A stretch of 64,000 nt of DNA from a virus: positions 32,001 through 96,000 of IMG/VR virus record IMGVR_UViG_3300045738_001212; one strand, 5' to 3'. This document shows, piece by piece, positions 43,780 through 53,171 of this stretch (position 1 is its first letter; each line of letters starts with the position of its first letter). The notes below the pieces were generated by a model. That model made no database searches. It was not told where the DNA came from and saw nothing but the letters and a program-made list of their open reading frames with translations. A program made the translations under genes and the position numbers.

Positions 43780-44160
43780 TTATATTGTATGGGCGATTAA
43801 ACTCGATGGCGTTTGAATTGGTGTTGTCATCCTCTTTAACTATTACTTCTTTTAAAACCACCAGCGATGAAGGAATCTTCCCTTGGGATATCAAATAAAG
43901 AAACACTGATTGAAATGTCGCTAAAAATAGCAAAAAACAAACTAATACCCTTAAGTTCCTAACTTTTTTCCTTAGCTCTTCCACAGTCTTGTTTCGATTT
44001 AATACATACGTCTAAACTGTTCATAGCATTCCTAAGATATAAGCTCTCACTCTTGGAATGCTTACCCACCTCCACTATTCTCTCAATTTTGGAATAAACC
44101 TTTTCCAACGCTGGAAGGTGTACCTTTTGTCCTCTAATCATAACAAGTGGTAGTAACCAA

Positions 44161-44242
44161 TGTCGTAATCCTCTGTATTTAGAATCAATAAATTTGCAGT
44201 ATATTGATAGCTACTCCAGTGGTGTCGCATGTCGTAATCCTC
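44161..44242 (-). CRISPR. two-repeat mini-array with one long-form repeat
   Basis: 37-nt TGTCGTAATCCTCTGTATTTAGAATCAATAAATTTGC (44161-44197), 32-nt spacer, core repeat at 44230. Confidence 0.7.
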
Positions 44243-44580
44243 TTAACTGTCCTTAACGAGCCTTTTTGATATCGGCAGTTACCTTATCGAAAGGCTCCTT
44301 GACGTAATGAGAGTTAGCTTCAGTAACGACAACCGTTCCTTCTTTATCGGTCTGCTGCCCGTCGGCTTGCCCCGCAAAGGAGTAGTACTCGATGATTTTG
44401 TCAACTCTGACAGCTAACTGTTCGGTAGCTGCGCGGAGTGTCCCATGTACGTTGGTTTTATACTTATTTAGTTTTAGTGTTTTCATAAAATTTAAGCGCG
44501 AGAGACAGAGCAGAAAGGTATTAACGACCCCGCCTCTCGCAAGTGTAGTTCCGCGTGACACTTCCCTACACTAAATTAAT

Positions 44581-44745
44581 GGGTGAGAGGATTCTCATTT
44601 ACCTCTATCGTTTCGGAGTCACAGCTTGAGTTTCAGTGAGAAACCCTACTTTGAACCAGCCCTTGTAAGCCCCCAGAGACGGTAATCTCCTGCAAACAAG
44701 CCCTGTACCTTAACTGCCGCGACAGCAGTTTATTCGGTCACACCC
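44581..44745 (-). ncRNA. candidate multi-hairpin structured RNA
   Basis: ends pair (GGGTG/CACCC); internal hairpins AACTGC/GCAGTT, GGAGA/TCTCT, GGGTTTC/GAAACTC, AGAGG/CCTCT; intergenic. Confidence 0.5.
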
Positions 44746-45124
44746 TTCGCTGGCGATCAACCAGCAAAATTATTTTAAAGAACAAATATTTTAGAATCTT
44801 CTATGAAGACTCTGGGGTGATATTGATCAATATCTTTCCCGTCTTTTACATTTACAAATTTTCTTTTTTTGTTTACCCGCACTTGATGTTTCCATTTGGG
44901 GCGAGAAGACTTCTTTTCCTCTAGGGAACGAATGTCGCCCAAGTCTACGCAACCCGTAAGAGTTCGCTTGGTGATAGCGACATCCCCCATGTGCAAAGCG
45001 TGTGTGCGCTTAAGCACTACAGGTTTGTCGCCGTATGCGTGTGCTCGCTTACTGCCCTTAACCTCTAGGCACTTCTTCTTTGAATTGTAAATTACTACTA
45101 CTTGCACGTTGTTATTTCTCCAGT

Positions 45125-45171
45125 TGTCGTAATCCTCTATAAATCGGTTAAGGGGTATTGTTGTAATCCTT
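45125..45171 (-). CRISPR. two-repeat mini-array
   Basis: core repeats at 45125 and 45159, 21 nt between. Confidence 0.6.
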
Positions 45172-45658
45172 CAATTAACTCGCCAACTTGACCCTGCCAA
45201 GCCTTGATCCTCGTAATCGCTCTCTGATAAATACTGCTGAACTTCCTCATCGGAAGCGAAAAGCATATTCTTCTCATCAATGTAAAAAATACTTTTGTGG
45301 TAAGCCATCTTGCGAATTACGCCTCCATGAAAGCCTACTCCGCTATCTTCCTTACCGTGAACGCAGGTTATTTTAACTACGTTAGCTGCGTCACTCATAT
45401 ATTTGGCGCATAAGCCCAGCCCTTTCACTTTATAAATCCTGCCTCTGACGGGCTCATGGACGCTTTCGAACGCGCTCTTGATTTCTTCAATATCCTTATC
45501 AACACCATCATCCAGCCAATCGTCCTCATCATCTCCGTACTTCCAAGCTCCTTCAACCCCCTTGGTTCCTTCGTGGCCTACTGGACAGGAATGCTCCTTG
45601 GGCTGCTCTTCCGGCTTGTCCTCGTAAAAAACTTCAATTCCTAAAAGATGAGACTTTT

Positions 45659-46303
45659 TCATAACAGATTTCTATTTTTTATTATCTTCCTTGCTCTTCG
45701 TCTAGCGTAAAATACCCTGCTCATAATCGTTCCTATCGAGCACTTCATTATTTTAGCAGCTTCGGCATAAGATTTTTCTTCTTCTATCACTAGCTCAATA
45801 ACCCTTTTTTGTTCGGGGTTCAGGCTCCCTTTTATCTGCGCCAAAACCTTCTTAAAGTGCTCAAAGCTTTCTTTCTCTTCAAGTCGGTTGCTGGGGCTTT
45901 CATCGTTAAGTAAGAGTATACCAGAACCTTGTAAGAAGTCAAGAGGATTTTTATCATTTTCTAAACAAAAATCTGCACAAAAATCTGAATAGGAAATCTC
46001 CTTAGATTTACGTCTTTTGTCCTGCCTGTAGAAATCATAGAAAGAATTGCGCCCAACCCTGAAAAACCACGTAGCAAAGGCACTTTTGAACTTAAAGGTC
46101 TTTATCCTCCTCCAAGATTTTACGCATGTAAGCTGCAAGATGTCTTTCGCGTCGGCTTCAGATACCCCCATTTTGAACAAAGAAGAGCGCACTAGGGCAC
46201 TATGACGCCCAAGAAGAACCTCGAATGCCTCCTTGCTACCTCTTTGACTCTTCTTTACTAAAGCTTCGTCTTTGAGGTTGGAAAGTTGAACTTTTTTGCT
46301 CAA
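45659..46303 (-). CDS. ECF-type RNA polymerase sigma factor
   Basis: DEALV...GSKEAFEVL, FKFKSAFATWFFR, SYAEAAKIMKCSIGTIMSRVFYAR. Confidence 0.88.
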   Translation of the reverse strand: MSKKVQLSNLKDEALVKKSQRGSKEAFEVLLGRHSALVRSSLFKMGVSEADAKDILQLTCVKSWRRIKTFKFKSAFATWFFRVGRNSFYDFYRQDKRRKSKEISYSDFCADFCLENDKNPLDFLQGSGILLLNDESPSNRLEEKESFEHFKKVLAQIKGSLNPEQKRVIELVIEEEKSYAEAAKIMKCSIGTIMSRVFYARRRARKIIKNRNLL

Positions 46304-46324
46304 TTTTTCTTAAGCTACGGCGAA

Positions 46325-46555
46325 TGTTGTAATCCTCTATACCGATTGGAAGTACTATGTTGTGATCCTCTCAAATACTGGAACAACTCAAATGTTCTAA
46401 TCCTCTGTGCTTCTTTCATTCGGTGGTGTCGTAATCCTCACGCTTATCAAACGAGATGTCGTAATCCCCTTACTTGATACTAGGCTGTGCATAGTTCATC
46501 CCATGTTCTAATCCTCATCCTAATCCTAATCGATTTCGTGGTGTGTCGCAACCCT
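46325..46555 (-). CRISPR. degenerate CRISPR-like array D, 7 repeats, immediately 3' of tmRNA
   Basis: core repeats at 46325, 46358, 46393, 46427, 46457, 46504, 46544; 17-34 nt between. Confidence 0.8.
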
Positions 46556-46561
46556 AAAAAA

Positions 46562-47020
46562 TGGTGGAGGCGGCGGGAATCGAACCCGCGTCTTTGGAGC
46601 CATCGGCTCAAATATACTACAAGCTTAATCAGTGCCATGTTCCTCGTATATAGCAGGTCACTGATTAAACCAACCGGGCCGCTCAAAGAGCGACTGGGAC
46701 TAACGTAAAACGTTAGACGCCTACACGAGTTTGAAGTCACATTTTATACTAGCGTTACAACCGCCCTAGTTTTTTGCTCGCTATCGACGCCCTAGCTCCT
46801 TAACGAGCATCCAGAGTAGGACGGGGCAGAACTTAAGCTGCCAGCGTGGCCTCTTCGGCCCAACCGAAACGAGCGAGAATCTCGTCTGCTTCAGCCAGAG
46901 AAGGAGCCATGTCAATATTACTATTGGCATATATGTTTTTAATGGAAGTTTTAAGAGGCCAACCATCATCCTCTGCTTGCAATCTGGCGTAAGATTCCAA
47001 ATCGAATCCAGTACGCCCCC
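46562..47020 (-). ncRNA. ssrA: tmRNA
   Basis: 5' GGGGGCG pairs with CGCCTCC-A-CCA (G3:U70), GGATTCGA, T-arm GGTTCGATTCCC, tag ORF 46833-46928 ending LAA-stop. Confidence 0.93.
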
Positions 47021-47534
47021 ACAAATATTACACTATAATTCACACCGATGGATTAATTGTTTCGCCTGTTTTGGGCTTTTTTTATTTCTTTTACTCCGTT
47101 TTTGGCAAATTCCTGACAGTGCTTTGCAAAAAAACCGTCCATCCCACATTTTTCCGCCCCTAAATATGAGTATAAGACTATAGCTAGGTTATTTTGCCCA
47201 GCTATCTGGCATTCGTCCGCCATGTCTTCAAGCACCGTCGCCAAAGTCTCTTCTCTGTTCTTCTTCCTCATTTAATTATTTTTAAAAAGATTTTTATCCT
47301 TCAACTCCGCTTTAAAGTTCCGTATCCCTTCCCATCTATAAACAGTGATCGGTATGGTAACGGGCGTCAACAATACATACCATTTTACTGTAAAAAACAC
47401 AAGATACAAAAGGTTACCCAATCCAAATAGCCAAGGATTTGATAACCAGCCCCAATCGTACTGAAACTGCTGCCATAAGAAGACCGAATAGGCGTCTAAT
47501 ACTCCTGAAAGATTTTCTGGATTCATGTCGTTTG

Positions 47535-47918
47535 TTATTTGATTTTTTTTGCGTGTCCCGCTTTTACCAAGAATTCGTTTACGGATTTGCCGTGGTATTT
47601 TCTCGTCCTTATGAAATTTTTAGTTAGTTGAACCTCGCCCAAGCACCTTCCGTATTTTCCGACACCAAGGGAAATCAGGGAAATTTCATTGTCACTGTTC
47701 TCAAGTATCTCCTTGAGCTTGGCCTTGGCTGCGAGCCCTTTCTTTTTCTCCACCTTGTCTCTCGTCCTGCTTTCGTAGGCGTCTATACCCGCTAACCTAA
47801 TGCGCTTCTTAACCCAAGTCTCAAAACCAAGGTCAATCATAGCGTCAATAGTGTCTCCGTCAACTACTTTAACTACTTTAGCTTTGTAGCGATACATCTT
47901 AGCTATTCCCCAGCCCAC
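47535..47918 (-). CDS. thermonuclease (SNase-like)
   Basis: KVVDGDT, RIRLAGIDAYE, GKYGR, LVKAGHA. Confidence 0.85.
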   Translation of the reverse strand: MGWGIAKMYRYKAKVVKVVDGDTIDAMIDLGFETWVKKRIRLAGIDAYESRTRDKVEKKKGLAAKAKLKEILENSDNEISLISLGVGKYGRCLGEVQLTKNFIRTRKYHGKSVNEFLVKAGHAKKIK

Positions 47919-48272
47919 TCTTCTTGTATTACGTGGTCTATTAAGCCCTCTATCCAGTCATTAAACGTATCTTGATCGAAGTCAGTCTCCCCCGTTTCCG
48001 CCCTGTACATGTCGAGAAACTCTTCATCCACCTCCATGAGGAGTTCTCTCTTGTTGCCCTTCACTTCTAGTTCTCTTATTACTTTTATTTTCATTAATAG
48101 CTCCTATTTTAGCCAGAAGTTCGTCTATCAAATCAAGCTGAGACATTGCGTAGACGAATCTCGTTCTGCTTAGATTGCTACCATGAGGGCTATATTTGTG
48201 CAACTCTTTTGTTCGTAGTTTTTTCCTTTTTTCAAGGATTTCTATAATCTTGTGTTTATCCATATACTCGTA

Positions 48273-48894
48273 TGTCGTAATCCTCTTAATATCGTCGGGA
48301 CGAAGCATGTCGCAATCCTCTTGTGCAGTCCAACCATATTTGTGTTCTAATCCTCTTAAAATCAGACTATGCGTACCCTGCGTGTTCTAATCCTCTTAAA
48401 ATATACAGGAGCAATCATGTTGCAATCCTCACTCTTAAAAGTTCACTACGGCGTGCTGTGTTGTAATCCTCTTTAAATCGCAAGCTGCTCATGTGTTATA
48501 ATCCTCTTGGTCCAAAGTATGACTGATGTTGTAATCCTCTTATACTTAAATTCGGTTACATGAGGTGCGTGTTGTAATCCTCGCTGGTTTTGTTGGTAAT
48601 GTTTTAATCCTCTTATACTTAAAAAACGCGCACAGCTTGAAATGTTTTAATCCTCTCAAATTTTACCACGATACTCCATGTTGTAATCCTCTCATGCTAA
48701 AATTACTTCTTCTGTTGTCGTAATCCTCTTTAACAGCCGTCGCAATGTTTTAATCCTCATACTTAAACTGTGCAGATTGACTCCCTGTGTTGTAATCCTC
48801 TTATACTTAAATTAGGATAAATCCGAATTATGTTTTAATCCTCTTACTTAAATTGTCAAATTCAGTCATCAGTAGGGTAAGTGTTTCAATCCTC
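48273..48894 (-). CRISPR. main degenerate CRISPR-like array E, 17 repeats
   Basis: 13-nt TGTYN(T/C)AATCCTC at 48273, 48308, 48343, 48383, 48418, 48459, 48494, 48527, 48570, 48600, 48643, 48679, 48716, 48746, 48788, 48831, 48882; 17-38 nt between, part of which is a shared TTATACTTAAA extension. Confidence 0.85.
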
Positions 48895-49137
48895 TTATGC
48901 TTGTTGATTCCTTATTTGCCTTATGGCTCTACGATGCATCCTCATGTGCTGGGGGTGAGCTTCGCACTCGCCATCAATTAATTCCATATCACATATCTCG
49001 CATTTAGGCTCGTTTAAGTCAGTCGAATGGTGTGTTTCACGGTAATGTTGTAATCCTAAATCTTCTGCTGTCGAAGGAAACTTGCAGTTAGCCCTTTCGA
49101 GTTCAAGAATAGTTATGTTTCTTTCTTCTTCAGTCAT
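48895..49137 (-). CDS. small Cys/His protein between nuclease and array
   Basis: 80 aa, CEIC...CEAH, overlaps nuclease stop; contains a repeat-like 12-mer at 49046. Confidence 0.45.
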   Translation of the reverse strand: MTEEERNITILELERANCKFPSTAEDLGLQHYRETHHSTDLNEPKCEICDMELIDGECEAHPQHMRMHRRAIRQIRNQQA

Positions 49138-50608
49138 TCTTACCTCCCAGCACGTAATTCTTAATGTTCATCGCCGCCAGCTTGTCGCGGTCATTCACCA
49201 CTCCACACTCAGGACACTCCCACACGCGCTGTGAGAGCTTTAAATCGTTGTAGATGTACCCACAGCCACACTTTTTAGATGTAGGCTCAAAACGGTCAAT
49301 TCTGATCATGTGTTTACCCGAGTGGTCGGCCTTATATTGGAACTTCGTGAAGAAGCTCCCCCAAGCAACGTCACTGATTCGGCGACTCATACCTCGCTGC
49401 TGGGCTCGACCATTGCGCTTATATTTTCCGTCCTTACCCTTTATGGGAGCTTTCTTTTCCTTCATTTGGGCAATGTTCAAATCCTCAACCGCAAAAGCAT
49501 TGAAGGGCATGTCTACTAGCGATCTGCTAAGTTCATGAGTGAAGTCGTCTCTCTTGTTTTTAATAGCCTCATCGATCTTCGCGCAAACCAGTCTTTGCTT
49601 ATTGTAGTTCTTACTCTTGAACTCCTTTCTAGCGAGCCGCCTTTGTCGAATTTTCTTTCGACGCAAGAGTCTTTGGTCGGTTTTGTACGGAGATAGCTTA
49701 TCGTCCGAGTATTCAAGCCCGAACTTGTCTAGGAAAACAGAGTTCTCAATTTTCGATTCGTCTGAAAGAGTTATGTAGTTTTTAATCCCTACGTCAATCC
49801 CAACAGTATTGGACTCATCAAATTCTTTCTTCTCTGGCATCGGAACTCCAGTATCCACGGGAATGAATACGTAATATTTATTCGTTGGAGTCCGAGTGAA
49901 AACGCACATGCCGAGTTTGGCCTTTGGGTGCTTCTCCAAAAACTCTTGCATGTTGATGTGCTGCTTAAACTTAATCCAAGTTTTGCACAGGGGCAGCTTG
50001 AATCGATTTTTTTCCCACTCCCATTTCATTTGGTTCGCTTCGCAATCAAAGTATTGGTTGTCCATCCAACTTCTAAAACGGGGGAATCCTTTATTTGGTT
50101 TTTTTGCAAAGTCTTTTTTGCTCTTCCAAAAGCCCTTAACTCTACGCTTTTTAAAACCCTCCCTATATGAAACTGCCAGCCTTTTGTATTGCCCTCCGAC
50201 AAGCCTACTCGGTGTTTCTTTTATCCAGTTGTATTCTTTGTCGTCGCCCTTTCTAAGCTTACGAAAATCTTTATCGGCCTGAGCAATGTCCAGCAACGGA
50301 AACCCAGAACATCTAATCTCTTTCTGGACTGCCTTATGTTCGTCTGACTTCTCTTCGTATACCCCGTCAGCAAGGTCTTTTTTCATTTTATCCTTAAGGT
50401 CTTGAAGATGTTTTTCGCCCCCAGACTTTTTCCATTCCTCGGTTCGTTCGTTTCTGGTATCCCAGTTTTTGGTTTGTCGGTCTACTTGCCAATTCCAATA
50501 CTTGCGGGCAGCGGCGAAGCTTTTGCTGAGAAAGTGGGTGCCGTCTTTATTTGTGTCAATTCGGTATTTTATGGCGATGACGATATTCTTAAGTTCTTTT
50601 TTGTCCAT
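49130..50608 (-). CDS. TnpB/Cas12f-like RNA-guided RuvC nuclease
   Basis: N-terminal KYRI...F...R..WN, GFPRF, RuvC-I VGIDVG, RuvC-II AVEDL, Zn finger PTSKKCGCG...CPECG, RuvC-III DRD..AAMNI. Confidence 0.9.
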   Translation of the reverse strand: MDKKELKNIVIAIKYRIDTNKDGTHFLSKSFAAARKYWNWQVDRQTKNWDTRNERTEEWKKSGGEKHLQDLKDKMKKDLADGVYEEKSDEHKAVQKEIRCSGFPLLDIAQADKDFRKLRKGDDKEYNWIKETPSRLVGGQYKRLAVSYREGFKKRRVKGFWKSKKDFAKKPNKGFPRFRSWMDNQYFDCEANQMKWEWEKNRFKLPLCKTWIKFKQHINMQEFLEKHPKAKLGMCVFTRTPTNKYYVFIPVDTGVPMPEKKEFDESNTVGIDVGIKNYITLSDESKIENSVFLDKFGLEYSDDKLSPYKTDQRLLRRKKIRQRRLARKEFKSKNYNKQRLVCAKIDEAIKNKRDDFTHELSRSLVDMPFNAFAVEDLNIAQMKEKKAPIKGKDGKYKRNGRAQQRGMSRRISDVAWGSFFTKFQYKADHSGKHMIRIDRFEPTSKKCGCGYIYNDLKLSQRVWECPECGVVNDRDKLAAMNIKNYVLGGKND

Positions 50609-50609
50609 A

Positions 50610-50788
50610 ATTATAATCCTTATTAAGTTTGGGGGTGGGAGGGAGGATTATTTCACTCCCACCCCCGAGGATTTTGTTGCCCCGAAAGCGACCCTTATGT
50701 AGACGAGCTATATAAGAAATCTTAATCTCTCGTATCTGACAACCGTAACTTCCCGTCCAACCGACGGTAGAGTTCGTATCAGCGAACT
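50610..50788 (-). ncRNA. candidate tracrRNA/omega-like leader RNA
   Basis: non-coding, several hairpins, two AATCCTC anti-repeat segments and a GTTGT segment; TTGACT-N16-TATACT promoter at 50795-50822. Confidence 0.55.
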
Positions 50789-50818
50789 ATGAAGAGTATA
50801 CCTGAAACTGTTTTGAAG

Positions 50819-51979
50819 TCAAGAGTTTTTTCCGAAAACTTCGTTCGACTGTTGGGTAACGCGAACGAAAGTGGCGCACTTGGGCATATCCTTTAGCCTT
50901 CTTGCTCCGATGTAAGTGCAGGTAGAGCGTAATCCACCAAGAATATCTTCTATCGTGCGCTTAACAAGTCCTCTATGTTCTACCCTAACCGTTTTCCCTT
51001 CGGACGAACGATAGTCCGCAACGCCACCGTTGTGCTTTTTCATGGCCGTCTCGGAACTCATTCCGTAAAAAGTCTTATATTTTTTGCCATCTATTTCTTC
51101 TTCTTGTCCTTCGCACTCCGTATGTCCAGCCAACATCCCGCCAAGCATGACAAAATCAGCACCTCCACCAAAAGCCTTGGCAACGTCCCCAACACAGGTA
51201 CAACCGCCATCAGCCATAATATACCCGCCAACGCCATGAGCGGCGTCGGCACACTCAACCACCGCGCTAAATTGGGGATAACCAACACCAGTCTGAATAC
51301 GAGTAGTGCAAACAGAACCACTTCCAATACCAACCTTGACGATATCTGCTCCATTTAAAATTAATTGCTCCGTCATCTCGCCAGTGACAACGTTCCCAGC
51401 AATGATAATAAGTGCTGGGTGCTCTTCCCTGACCCGTTTAATAAAGTCACAAAACCTCGCGGTATAGCCATTGGCTGCGTCAATACAAACAAATTGAGTA
51501 TGATAAAAATTCCAAGTAATATTATGGAGGTAGTCCATATCGTCAAATTTATTTTCGTCGTATTTAATGCCAATAGAGGGAGATATATGTTCATAAATTC
51601 TATTTTGCCAACAAGCTGAGTCTGGATCATGTTTCCAGTCCGCTGAGTTAGCTTCCTTGCTTTCCTGTGTTTTGTAAACTCCGTAGCCATCCATCTTGTG
51701 TAGCCATCTTTTTATATCGTTGTGTTTGCTGATGCAGGTAAGCATACGGTGTCGAGCGAAAGCCTTTGCCATCTCAAAGGTTCCGACTGTATCCATATTT
51801 GAAGCTACAATTGGAACGCCTTTCCAACCGTAAGCTTTTGGGTCAGCACCTTCCCCGCCAGCGTTAGGAAAAGTAAACTCGCGAACCAAGTCAACTTCCT
51901 TACGAGAAGTTAAGGTGGAACGCTTCGGGCGAAGAAGAACGTCCTTGTAGTCTAATTTTATTTCTGGTTCAATTCTCAC
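50819..51979 (-). CDS. guaC: GMP reductase
   Basis: [47 protein letters not shown]. Confidence 0.92.
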
Positions 51980-52248
51980 TATGAATTATCTAAAGGATTA
52001 TTTTCATTTGGATTATTTTCCATACCACTCCCTAGCTCTATTTGGGTGGTGACAGGAAAGGGGGCGTTCATTTGTCGGTGTTTTTTCGAAATGATTCGTC
52101 TGAGATTTTTTCATTTTCCTCTGTTTCTTTTCAATTTTTTGATCAAGCAACCAGCCTTTAACAATCTGAGACTTGGTGAGGTCAGGGAATTCCTTCCTTA
52201 ACCGAGACATTTTTCTCTTGGATATCTGCGATTTCCCTTTCTTAGTTT

Positions 52249-52920
52249 TCATTTACGAACCAGTGGGGTTAAAATGAGGTATCCTGTATCGGAAAAAGAT
52301 TTCGTGATGTTATGGGTATCCTCAAATAACCTATATACGAAATCACTACCTCCAGAATTACTGAACTGATGCCTATCGGCCCAATTTCCCTCCTCAAACG
52401 CTCCCTCCTCGTAAATTCTCAAATCGTCAATGATCAAAACGTCTCCAGAGACATTTTTGTGTTCAACGATCATAGTTAGCTCGCTCTCAAGAGGTAACTC
52501 AATTTCATCTTTTTTGTTCTCGTCTCCGTCATGGTGATGAGTAGGCAAGTGAGCATCTAGCCAAAAGAAAGTCGGAACGTCTTTATTGTCCTCTAGTATC
52601 TTAGGCAAAACATCTGCGGAATGACCCAAATGAGAACGAACGCTTGGGACACTAGAGAAGTCATATTTATTGAAAGAGCTTTCTACCAACTCAACCGTGT
52701 AAATCTCCTCAAATGGCTTAATGTCATTTAAGCCCCATTCGCGAGTCGGACACCAATCATTTTCGAACTCGGCGTGAACCTTGACCCTTTCCTTCTCGTC
52801 ATTTATTCCTGCTAAAAATAGTGCCCCACGCGGAGGGCAACCCGTGCCTGTCTCAATGGCAATTTTAAGGCCGTGGTCGTCCTTGATCCTTTCAACTTCC
52901 CATTTCCATAGTACTCCCAT
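52249..52920 (-). CDS. methyltransferase-fold hypothetical protein
   Basis: IETGT, FFWLDAH, LIIDDLR. Confidence 0.55.
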   Translation of the reverse strand: MGVLWKWEVERIKDDHGLKIAIETGTGCPPRGALFLAGINDEKERVKVHAEFENDWCPTREWGLNDIKPFEEIYTVELVESSFNKYDFSSVPSVRSHLGHSADVLPKILEDNKDVPTFFWLDAHLPTHHHDGDENKKDEIELPLESELTMIVEHKNVSGDVLIIDDLRIYEEGAFEEGNWADRHQFSNSGGSDFVYRLFEDTHNITKSFSDTGYLILTPLVRK

Positions 52921-53171
52921 GCTTAAATAATATTAAATAATTTTAATAGGATCACCACCTGAAGAGTTAGGGTGCAGAAGCCCAAAAAGGTACGCAAAAA
53001 CTCCATTAGGTGATTATACCTGTCCAGTTTGTACTCCGTTTTTCTTAGCCAATCTGGACTATTTTCGTACTTACCCTCTCCAATTCCGACATTTTTGAGC
53101 TTTTTCCGAAATTTTGCCGCTTTTTTCTTCTGTTTTTCCTCTTCCATCTAAGGATTATGCTCCAGTTCTTC

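Follow-up and report, generated by a model that had tools for sequence, protein, structure and literature searches.

A conserved structured RNA gene upstream of a phage TnpB-family nuclease is a candidate tracr-like scaffold for short, scattered guide units

The described systems closest to the locus reported here are TranC, Cas12f, the TnpB proteins of IS200/IS605 elements, and dCas12f-sigmaE. In the work on TranC (Jin et al., Cell 2025, doi 10.1016/j.cell.2025.09.004, as summarised in PMC13565253), TranC is presented as a transposon-CRISPR intermediate under a "functional RNA splitting" model: the effector is TnpB-sized, nuclease-competent, without cas1/cas2 and in some examples phage-borne; the guide RNA is divided into a multi-stem scaffold of 100–200 nt, whose 3' anti-repeat pairs with the guide-proximal part of the repeat, and short repeat-guide RNAs; the repeats are 32–38 bp and the scaffold lies between effector and array. 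Data for the TranC clade were given in bioRxiv 10.64898/2026.03.27.714800, where the working criterion for a Cas12f or TranC tracrRNA is at least 6 of 10 pairs within the last 16 nt of the repeat. Cas12f (Un1Cas12f1, 7c7l; AsCas12f, 8j12) is a miniature TnpB-descended effector with a long structured tracrRNA, where a few unpaired bases separate the repeat:anti-repeat duplex from the guide behind it; two segments of the tracrRNA pair with its repeats, which have the full length of about 36 nt. The omegaRNA of IS200/IS605 begins within the 3' part of tnpB, reaches as far as the right end of the transposon, and holds scaffold and guide in one molecule; in ISDra2 a pseudoknot arises where the nucleotides immediately 5' of the guide base-pair with a remote part of the scaffold (PMC10097598). 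The dCas12f-sigmaE effectors, which are TnpB/Cas12f-derived and use 14–16-nt guides, are nuclease-dead and stand in an operon with rpoE; the sequence directly downstream encodes single guide RNAs of 85–105 nt, and these work without any tracrRNA-like species (Hoffmann et al., Nature 2026, PMC13472631).

We examined a window of 64,000 nt from a 158-kb marine phage genome (IMG/VR record IMGVR_UViG_3300045738_001212). Its minus strand encodes a 492-aa TnpB-family nuclease (49130–50608) with WED/REC, RuvC and zinc-ribbon regions, Pfam matches to HTH_OrfB_IS605, OrfB_IS605 and Cas12f1-like_TNB, and an intact RuvC triad (D272, E375, D475) that was invariant across the nuclease alignment (A3). ISDra2 TnpB (8h1j/8bf8), with the same triad and zinc ribbon, was the closest protein both by sequence (E 6e-22) and by fold (8h1j nearest to the AlphaFold2 model, pLDDT 85). 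The predicted fold resembles TnpB more closely than Cas12f (TM-scores of 0.71–0.78 vs 0.42–0.60, by target length), and relative to ISDra2 TnpB the model has about 80 extra helical REC residues (aa 21–169); LaTranC matched the nuclease only in the C-terminal zinc-ribbon region (E 2e-11) and ranked by fold behind the TnpBs. As judged from sequence and predicted fold, the protein is a complete TnpB, and nuclease-competent by its intact triad. Unlike an IS200/IS605 element, the gene is fixed at one syntenic place in related phages, and neither TnpA nor transposon ends were found in any locus compared. Its stop codon is overlapped by the gene of a conserved Cys-rich small protein of 80 aa (48895–49137, minus strand; protein alignment A2), and because this gene fills the space 3' of the nuclease no omegaRNA-like element lies there, in agreement with the first-pass annotation, which had placed the RNA 5' of the gene rather than 3' as in IS605.

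The stretch 5' of the nuclease proved to be more than a leader. It holds a conserved non-coding RNA of ~160 nt (50631–50790, minus strand, the strand being fixed by G-U pairs), which has its own promoter and closes with an 11-bp GC hairpin; the start was inferred to lie 5–7 nt past the −10 box, and the end was taken as the foot of the GC hairpin. The RNA was delimited by alignment (A1), consensus fold and pair counts; model R1 scored it at 170.6 bits (E 7e-43), and a whole-genome check found a single copy. The first-pass annotation had described a sigma70 promoter and a structured, promoter-driven non-coding RNA tied to the nuclease, and both descriptions stand, with every position that it gave being correct. 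The promoter (50795–50822, minus strand) is TTGACT-16-TATACT, with 10 of 12 consensus matches, and each of the 14 homologous loci has CTTGAC-N17-TAtAcT in this position. Related marine phage contigs yielded fourteen distinct versions of the RNA, whose alignment columns have a mean identity of 85%; in every pair compared the RNA was more similar (76–94% identity) than the DNA of the nuclease gene (60–89%). The nuclease lay 67–1550 nt downstream of the RNA motif in 29 of the 29 loci long enough to show it, and where the upstream neighbour differs (L001, L012, L021) the RNA tracks the nuclease and not the upstream gene. That neighbour in the window is a gene of the IMP dehydrogenase/GMP reductase family. 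The RNA and the nuclease are separated in L021 by a ~470-aa gene with its own promoter, and in L005, L014 and L015 by a gap of roughly 75–250 nt, the nuclease there using a different ribosome-binding site (AAGGAG in L005, AAGGU in L015). Because of these separations, and of a U-run that follows the hairpin in half of the relatives, we conclude that the stretch is a stand-alone RNA gene, a separate unit from the nuclease. Like a type V tracrRNA, it is a multi-stem RNA of 100–200 nt, predicted to be discrete, that adjoins and is co-inherited with a TnpB/Cas12-family effector. An Rfam search of 44000–53000 with E up to 1 returned only tmRNA and manA RNA, and in the RNA region of L031, the nearest ordinary phage TnpB locus, model R1 had no match, so that by these comparisons the RNA has no detectable similarity to described omegaRNA families.

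The RNA is built of two 5' hairpins (P1 and P2), a long-range helix (P3/P4) around a variable region, a single-stranded linker and the terminal GC hairpin, all on the minus strand. Helix cells were paired in 98.8% of cases vs 39–51% when partners were slid; 10 cells were changed on both sides, a number reached in 0 of 500 shuffles, and compensatory changes were carried by four helices. The fold of the leader taken alone was only moderately unusual (z = −2.47). P1 (50771–50788; AGUUCG...CGAACU with a variable loop) was paired in 100% of cells and has one pair changed on both sides; P2 (50753–50767; CCGUC-GGUUG-GACGG) has an invariant loop, which 10 sequences close with C-G and 4 with G-C. The 5' strand of P3, GUUGUC (50738–50743; columns 57–62), pairs with columns 121–126, its 3' strand GGCAAC (50676–50681; consensus fold and pair counts); one position shows the pair types AU, GC and CG, and the position after it CG, UA and UG. 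The first-pass annotation had read GUUGU as an anti-repeat segment for the ACAAC end of the repeat. These letters are real (plus-strand ACAAC, 50739–50743), but they are a strand of P3, pairing internally with GCAAC and covarying with that partner: most relatives read ACUGU, others GCUGU, CUUGU or AUUGU, with matching changes on the opposite strand, and relatives with an altered GUUGU keep ACAACA in their tags. GUUGU as an anti-repeat is thereby ruled out. The terminal hairpin (50631–50666; fold and alignment) has an 11-bp GC stem, GGGGGUGGGAG/CUCCCACCCCC; because 5–9 U follow it in 7 of the 14 relatives it can serve as an intrinsic terminator in some of them, and the U-run is absent in the window.

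The presumed partners of the RNA are short tags. The tag GAGGATTNNNACA is strand-specific: the 158-kb genome has 39 copies in the minus strand and 0 in the plus strand, and a reversed-pattern control also gave 0. Repeat analysis placed 17 units in one array (48273–48894, minus strand), each having a 13-nt tag, GAGGAUURNRACA, followed by a unique insert of 17–30 nt; the conserved core is 13–14 nt and the shortest unit period is 30 nt (13 + 17). A second contig with an identical nuclease has the same array span. Whereas a CRISPR array has repeats of about 23 nt or more and foreign spacers, here the core is shorter and there is no cas1/cas2. Further units lie dispersed along about 50 kb of genome on the same strand, some directly before start codons and some where no gene follows; terminal tags are mostly 17–21 nt before the next start codon, and the genes behind them are without a Shine-Dalgarno sequence of their own, here and in relatives. 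A gene for an ECF-type sigma factor (45659–46303), with a tag in its 5' leader, is about 3 kb away, with other genes and a tmRNA between; different lineages have kept the tag-plus-spacer before it and before the genes that come next. Conservation of several spacers extends to phages with nucleases only 65–78% identical, and some spacers resemble one another, unlike acquired CRISPR spacers. Relatives with both RNA and nuclease carry few tags (4 were counted in a 71-kb fragment) or, in L009 and L011, none within ±5 kb. Comparison of 14 loci further showed a tag-like AAGGAUUAUAAUU ("tag 0"; 50609–50621, minus strand) directly before the nuclease AUG, where it doubles as the Shine-Dalgarno sequence. 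A AAGGATTA-type or AAGGGTTA-type motif follows the hairpin in 10 of the 14 loci, the L009 equivalent of tag 0 being AAGGATTACGACA, 28 nt before the ATG; in 7 of the 14, the window included, a tag-like AAGGAUUA or AAGGGUUA stands 8–9 nt before the AUG.

Protospacers were found for none of the spacers examined in phage records, IMG/VR, genomes or the phage's own genome: a blastn search of the array against 50,697 phage records gave low-complexity noise only, exact scans with two 20-nt spacers against IMG/VR gave nothing, and one conserved 19-nt spacer had a single chance-level match in 596 Gb of genomes. Self-targeting was rejected, as a scan of the phage's own genome gave 9 matches (at most 2 mismatches in 16 nt) vs about 4 expected, without a convincing excess. 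One of these matches, differing at a single base, might reflect duplication of a gene start. Also rejected was the idea that the tags provide mini-ORFs with ribosome-binding sites: G never follows ACA, T follows it in 17 of 37 tags, and of roughly 20 T cases about 6, by an eye count, continue as ATG, near the random rate.

The first-pass annotation had proposed a tracrRNA with a split anti-repeat, naming AAUCCUC and UAAUCCUC, both complementary to GAGGAUU(A) of the repeat, as two of its segments. Both are present. The heptamer AAUCCUC (plus-strand GAGGATT, 50667–50673) lies in the linker AAAAUCCUC (50667–50675, minus strand) between P3 and the terminal hairpin; the linker is invariant in 14 of 14 sequences and unpaired in the consensus fold, its predicted mean unpaired probability being 0.37–0.96. 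The second copy, UAAUCCUC (50643–50650, minus strand; alignment and accessibility), is in the loop of the 11-bp stem with a predicted unpaired probability of 0.73–0.75, and there AAUCCUCC is invariant while the remaining loop bases vary (UGAAAU, UGAAUU, AGAUU, UGAACUA, AGA). Across the 14 distinct homologous RNAs both AAUCCUC copies are invariant, as the proposal expected of anti-repeats (GUUGU varies), and both complement the same invariant GAGGAUU half of the tag. They duplicate each other; they are two copies of one anti-tag and not two halves of a split anti-repeat. Of the proposal, then, a tracr-like scaffold is retained, and the division of its anti-repeat into two or three segments is not. 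Nor did the caution that such short matches could be chance hold up: AATCCTC in the minus sense occurs only 8 times in 158 kb, 2 of these 24 nt apart within the RNA, for which the Poisson estimate (at least two in one 174-nt stretch) is about 4e-5, and TAATCCTC in the minus sense occurs once in the whole genome, in the hairpin loop. When guide units were co-folded with the RNA, the pairing began in 21 of 21 cases where the tag's first G meets the final C of the linker heptamer. The 7–9 contiguous pairs between AAUCCUC/UAAUCCUC and GAGGAUU(A) fall in the guide-proximal part of the repeat, as in type V tracrRNAs, and the 7–8 contiguous pairs within the last 13–14 nt of the repeat are enough for the working threshold used for Cas12f and TranC.

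Covariation lends no support to the tag:anti-tag pairing because neither sequence ever varies, tag and anti-tag both being invariant across all lineages found. An exhaustive protein search for distant family members that could supply covariation found none past the 60%-identical cluster, the next hits being ordinary TnpBs (E 2e-44) aligned only from about residue 160 onward. A conserved partner for the ACAACA half of the tag was not found in the RNA; the P2 loop GGUUG, considered as partner of the tag's CAAC, could pair with only about half of the tags and is not claimed.

A tracr-like scaffold is supported by the conserved, promoter-driven and structured RNA, by its linkage to the nuclease, and by the invariant, accessible anti-tags. 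We lean towards the view that the RNA is the tracr-like scaffold partner of the adjacent TnpB-family nuclease, with separate tag-guide units docking on AAUCCUC. From sequence, we infer that the nuclease would bind the ~160-nt RNA as TnpB binds the omegaRNA scaffold or Cas12f binds its tracrRNA, and that in the window the GC hairpin would be read through into the nuclease operon. The guides would be separate short units, a 13–14-nt tag (A-GAGGAUU-RNR-ACA) and at least 16–17 nt, coming from the array after the nuclease operon and from other same-strand intergenic sites; each would dock by 7–9 bp, GAGGAUU(A) on the invariant AAUCCUC of the scaffold, with the linker copy beside P3 as the likelier site and the loop copy as a second or alternative one. 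The 30-nt minimum period and the 17–21-nt spacing between tag and start fit the 16-nt guide of ISDra2 TnpB (PMC10097598). On read-through transcripts the tag-like AAGGAUUA past the hairpin may pair in cis with the heptamer, which would give a single-guide form or feedback on nuclease translation. Several observations count against the scaffold reading: the docking helix has only 7–9 bp, without a conserved complement to the ACAACA half; spacers are conserved or mutually similar; some relatives have few tags or none; and the heptamer looks like an anti-Shine-Dalgarno sequence, the post-hairpin element being the ribosome-binding site of the nuclease in about half of the loci.

The locus is classed as a variation on the TnpB-to-CRISPR (TranC/Cas12f) theme. 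It shares with TranC the type of effector, the divided guide RNA and the position of the anti-repeat; it differs in a tag of 13–14 nt, below detection by CRISPR finders, in a scaffold gene that has a promoter and hairpin of its own and lies upstream of the effector, in carrying the anti-tag twice, in units spread over about 50 kb and in part set before start codons, and in inserts some of which are kept between diverged phages. The likeness to Cas12f extends to the order of duplex, few unpaired bases and guide, with a single segment of 7–9 bp supported here rather than two. The Un1Cas12f1 repeat ends ...GAAGGAAUGCAAC, which resembles GAGGAUUACAAC. The contact proposed here in trans is of the kind that forms the omegaRNA pseudoknot, in an RNA that, unlike an omegaRNA, is 5' of the gene and has no guide of its own. 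With dCas12f-sigmaE the locus has in common the protein ancestry, the guide length and an ECF-type sigma gene; the present nuclease, however, has an intact triad, and the sigma gene stands apart from it.

Three other explanations were weighed against the scaffold reading. The RNA might be a trans-acting regulatory sRNA independent of the nuclease, whose AAUCCUC would bind GAGGAUU tags in phage messengers and affect translation, processing or stability, the arrays being sponges or decoys and the adjacency of the nuclease inherited gene order. The regular placing of terminal tags upstream of genes without Shine-Dalgarno sequences, the conserved tag-plus-spacer upstream of the sigma-factor gene and the next genes, and the failure to find a target for any spacer would all suit such an sRNA; we nevertheless consider it unlikely, since the RNA stays strictly linked to the nuclease while other neighbours change, a complete, triad-intact TnpB would be left with no other candidate RNA, units also occur where no gene follows, and the 17-unit array with unique inserts and a 30-nt minimum unit fits guides better than decoys. 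Somewhat less probable still is that the stretch acts in cis on the nuclease operon, as its leader or attenuator, with the GC hairpin terminating or pausing transcription and AAUCCUC pairing with the ribosome-binding site AAGGAUUA to set the nuclease level. The anti-Shine-Dalgarno likeness and the post-hairpin ribosome-binding site mean that such a role would also explain the heptamer; the RNA is directly 5' of the nuclease gene, a U-run stands behind the hairpin in about half of the relatives, the AAGGAUUA or AAGGGUUA element precedes the AUG by 8–9 nt in 7 of 14 loci, and AGGAUU can pair with AAUCCU across the hairpin foot. However, the RNA and its heptamers are just as invariant where the nuclease start is roughly 75–1500 nt away and has another ribosome-binding site (L005, L014, L015, L021), in L021 with another gene and its promoter intervening, and about 160 nt kept at 76–94% identity with four covarying helices goes far beyond the needs of an attenuator. 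A cis-leader role could coexist with the scaffold role.

The remaining explanation, which attributes the complementarity to chance and takes the hairpins for a common intergenic terminator behind the upstream gene of the IMP dehydrogenase/GMP reductase family, has in its favour that the matches are only 5–8 nt long, that the leader fold alone is not striking, and that GUUGU indeed turned out to be unrelated to the repeat. It is already contradicted by linkage, alignment, heptamer counts and covariation, and we regard it as very improbable: the RNA has its own conserved promoter and follows the nuclease, not the upstream gene (L001, L012, L021), both heptamers are invariant in 14 lineages, and 2 of the 8 genome-wide AATCCTC fall within it.

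The outcome is a defined RNA gene, with promoter, helices and two candidate docking sites, and one falsified element, GUUGU. If this RNA is the scaffold, it would be a natural and extreme split of an omegaRNA-type guide, with a 160-nt helper and guides of about 30 nt that carry a 13-nt handle; it would bear on the emergence of CRISPR arrays out of TnpB, would draw attention to tag arrays shorter than current CRISPR detection can handle, and would suggest a compact two-RNA design with very short programmable RNAs. A broader proposal is more tentative, and we offer it as a possibility that we rate below the scaffold assignment: that a phage lineage built, from a domesticated TnpB and without adaptation genes, an RNA-guided system where one scaffold RNA is common to dozens of minimal guide units (a 13-nt tag and about 16–17 nt), docked by 7–9 bp and written into phage operons, including their 5' leaders. 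Were this true, guide supply would be tied to the transcription programme of the phage, no natural repeat handle known for a TnpB/Cas12-type effector would be shorter than the tag, and the arrays would form a class invisible to CRISPR finders. Guide units that are scattered and partly conserved in phage operons would amount to a fixed guide set, whose targets might lie in the host genome, in rival phages, or in the phage's own regulation.

The source record is a 158-kb marine phage genome, estimated to be 91% complete, of which the window forms part, and the minus strand carries most of its genes. A 492-aa protein with three TnpB Pfam domains is encoded at 49130-50608 (-), with an 80-aa ORF (48895-49137, -) overlapping its stop codon, and the ~160-nt structured leader RNA (50631-50790, -) lies 5' of this nuclease gene, where the first-pass annotation had set it. 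Also in agreement with that annotation, a TTGACT-16-TATACT promoter was located at 50822-50795, AAUCCUC at 50667-50673, UAAUCCUC at 50643-50650 within the loop of an 11-bp GC stem (50631-50666), and the letters GUUGU at 50739-50743. An IMP dehydrogenase/GMP reductase-family gene occupies 50819-51979; a staphylococcal-nuclease-like gene lies near the nuclease module. The phage has few Shine-Dalgarno sequences, and many genes have their ATG a few bases past the -10 of a CTTGACA-type promoter (e.g., 323, 577, 1132, 4577, 7098, 7597, 9372, 9915); across the whole window these genes appear leaderless.

Contigs carrying relatives of the nuclease, a tight family of 58-79% identity from marine metagenomes, were retrieved, and IMG/VR and JGI metagenomes were scanned in addition with a 22-nt piece of the leader. 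The nuclease was found 67-1550 nt downstream in 29 of 29 motif-bearing loci that reach far enough (two more, outside the 29, stop at a contig edge). The 14 distinct full-length RNA versions aligned with a mean column identity of 85%; the -35 and -10 boxes were kept in homologous loci (CTTGAC-N17-TAtAcT), and for every locus pair identity was higher in the RNA (76-94%) than in the DNA of the nuclease gene (60-89%). No Rfam family matches the RNA. In one relative the RNA and the nuclease are separated by a gene (L021:1082-2574, on the minus strand of that locus) which has ~470 codons and a promoter of its own; in three others (L005, L014, L015) the nuclease start is ~75-250 nt further on, with another ribosome-binding site; and the RNA is present once in the genome. 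For these reasons we regard it as an RNA gene in its own right and not as a 5' UTR. It is very probably functional and part of the nuclease module.

RNAalifold, applied to the aligned homologues, gave a consensus of four helices: hairpin P1 with a variable loop; hairpin P2, closed by a C-G pair in 10 sequences and by a G-C pair in 4; the long-range helix P3/P4, which encloses a variable region; and the 11-bp, GC terminal hairpin. On this structure 98.8% of cells were paired, compared with 39-51% when partners were slid by 1-3 columns. Both-side changes were seen in 10 cells, a number reached in none of 500 shuffles. The U-G pairs in P3 and the hairpin identify the RNA strand as minus. In half of the relatives 5-9 U follow the hairpin, which makes it a terminator there; the window's hairpin has no U-run, so that RNA polymerase probably continues into the nuclease operon.

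The first-pass annotation had read the leader as a split tracrRNA with three segments complementary to the tag, the 13-nt motif preceding each insert (presumed guide). Its observation was confirmed and its interpretation is partly supported: the two AAUCCUC motifs are invariant and predicted to be accessible, whereas GUUGU belongs to an internal, covarying helix. Both copies of AAUCCUC were invariant in 14/14 sequences. Copy 1 lies in a 9-11-nt single-stranded linker, AAAAUCCUC (UA added in relatives), between the P3 3' strand and the terminal hairpin. The loop of that hairpin holds copy 2, and there AAUCCUCC is constant while its neighbours vary (UGAAAU, UGAAUU, AGAUU, UGAACUA, AGA), a pattern that would not be expected of a plain terminator. 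Partition-function folding put the mean unpaired probability of copy 1 at 0.37-0.96 and that of copy 2 at 0.73-0.75, the value for the RNA as a whole being ~0.4. When the RNA was co-folded with 21 tag-plus-guide units, without a shuffled control and with some intermolecular pairs that involve spacers and are probably spurious, the tag paired with copy 1 in all 21, always starting at the tag's first G and copy 1's last C. This pairing spans 7 bp (GAGGAUU), extended to 8 by the A that usually precedes the tag, and that with copy 2 spans 8-9 bp. In the RNA's sense AATCCTC occurs 8 times per 158 kb, two of them 24 nt apart in the leader (Poisson estimate for at least two in one 174-nt stretch, about 4e-5), and TAATCCTC occurs once in 158 kb, in the hairpin loop. 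Chance complementarity is excluded by their conservation and we give it almost no weight.

For the ACAACA half of the tag no conserved single-stranded partner was found in the RNA. GUUGU was rejected as an anti-repeat; it is the P3 5' strand and pairs with GGCAAC at 50676-50681. The two variable positions of P3 read AC, GC, CU or AU in relatives, opposite GU, GC, GG or AU, these both-side changes keeping P3 paired, and tags in phages with a changed P3 are still ACAACA. The invariant P2 loop GGUUG was likewise rejected, as only about half of the tags could pair with it.

The genome carries the tag pattern GAGGATTNNNACA 39 times on its minus strand and 0 times on its plus strand, with 0 for the reversed-pattern control. 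The logo reads A-GAGGATT-R-N-R-ACA, then any base except G, with a weak A/T preference upstream and no conservation downstream. Units of tag and insert repeat every 30-46 nt (mode 35), the minimum being 13 + 17 nt; of the six terminal tags followed by a plausible ORF, four lie 17, 17, 19 and 21 nt before the next start codon and the others 9 and 29 nt, and in relatives this distance is 17-18 nt. Minimum period and spacing are both consistent with a functional unit made up of the tag and 16-17 further nt; ISDra2 has a 16-nt guide (PMC10097598). Genes following a cluster's last tag, usually after 17-21 nt, lack a Shine-Dalgarno sequence of their own (last tags starting at 46337, 45137, 44173 and 12579, all (-), and at L001:8135, 9252 and L012:3690 in relatives). 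A six-tag cluster (46325-46516) directly follows a phage tmRNA at 46562-47020 (-) (RF00023, 123.9 bits) of which ARAGORN gave no report, and a manA RNA motif at 44576-44766 (-) (RF01745, 57.3 bits, barely over the gathering score) adjoins two further tags and contains, at 44593, one of the few AATCCTC copies in minus sense outside the leader.

All 17 inserts of the main array (48273-48894) are unique, and for none of 49 inserts did the phage genome contain a second, convincing match. The insert after tag 46516 (TGGGATGAACTATGCA) has a one-mismatch match at about 24793 (-), in the start region of gene 24789-24298, which may reflect duplication of a gene start and not targeting. No targets were found in the phage records, IMG/VR or species genomes searched; the inserts are therefore not classical adaptive spacers. 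Relatives carry fewer tags (4 in a 71-kb fragment; 0 within 5 kb in two lineages). Some units occupy the same syntenic places with conserved inserts, e.g., upstream of the ECF-type sigma factor gene (45659-46303) and its next two genes; the sigma factor gene's tag-plus-leader (insert starting ttcgccgtagct) is conserved between phages whose nucleases are 71-78% identical. Inserts of mini-arrays in three relatives resemble each other (L012:2210-2325; L024:5153-5270; L025:7352; ccggagaatcRcacttga, ttggagattcacacttgMa), so that expansion of these arrays through tandem duplication and divergence seems likelier than acquisition of spacers.

The nuclease aligns with ISDra2 TnpB (8h1j, 8bf8; E about 6e-22), its D272, E375 and D475, invariant in the family alignment, matching catalytic D191, E278 and D361. 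The AlphaFold2 model (pLDDT 85) was nearest to ISDra2 and ISFba1 TnpB, then to Cas12p, Fanzor2, Cas12f and TranC; the protein has an enlarged helical REC region (aa 21-169). When 1.84 billion cluster representatives were searched exhaustively with phmmer, the result was one family representative (60% identity), followed by ordinary TnpBs (E 2e-44) aligned only from ~residue 160 onward, a gap which marks the family as isolated. The place of a TnpB omegaRNA, 3' of the nuclease, is taken by a conserved gene for a Cys-rich small protein (48895-49137 (-); L001:4422-4673; L015:1969-2214; MTEEER..TILELERA.CKF...NEPKCE.C...L..G.C..H), leaving the upstream RNA as the only candidate RNA partner. In some lineages 1-2 units (33 nt) lie in frame inside this small gene and encode DLGLQ../KGLQQH; the protein may belong to the module as its third component.

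The RNA is thus conserved, structured, promoter-driven and linked to a TnpB with intact catalytic residues, and bears two motifs, invariant and predicted to be accessible, whose sequence complements the invariant half of a strand-specific tag. We lean towards its being a scaffold or tracr-like partner of the nuclease. Host RNases would free tag-guide RNAs from operon transcripts, perhaps cutting at the weakly conserved A/U-rich stretch ahead of many tags, and these would dock on AAUCCUC; at the linker copy the duplex would sit beside P3 with RNRACA and the guide left free. A tag-like AAGGAUUA after the hairpin could also pair in cis with the AAUCCUC motifs, giving a single-guide form or translation feedback; such an element is present in 10/14 loci, is the ribosome-binding site in 7, and in one locus (L009) a full tag, AAGGAUUACGACA, plus 28 nt precedes the AUG. 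A purely cis attenuator of the nuclease is improbable, as it leaves unexplained the invariance in loci whose nuclease starts far away. A small RNA that acts on tagged messengers independently of the nuclease would fit the fixed tag-to-start-codon distance and the conserved inserts, but not the strict linkage to a complete TnpB without other RNA; we regard it as unlikely, if a little less so than the attenuator.

On the scaffold reading, the described systems closest to this one are the TnpB-derived ones of the TranC/Cas12f type, in which the guide RNA is split (PMC13565253; Jin et al. 2025). What sets the present locus apart is a handle of 13-14 nt as against 32-38-bp repeats, a scaffold gene that lies upstream under its own promoter, a duplicated anti-tag, units that are scattered, some directly before start codons, and partly conserved inserts. 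Docking at the linker copy would match the layout of Cas12f, Cas12n and TranC guide RNAs, in which a short stretch of unpaired bases comes after the anti-repeat:repeat stem (bioRxiv 10.64898/2026.03.27.714800), and would recall the omegaRNA, whose guide-proximal bases form a pseudoknot with a distant scaffold segment (PMC10097598). The TnpB/Cas12 survey used standard CRISPR finders (PMC10691335), which would probably miss tag arrays of such short repeats.
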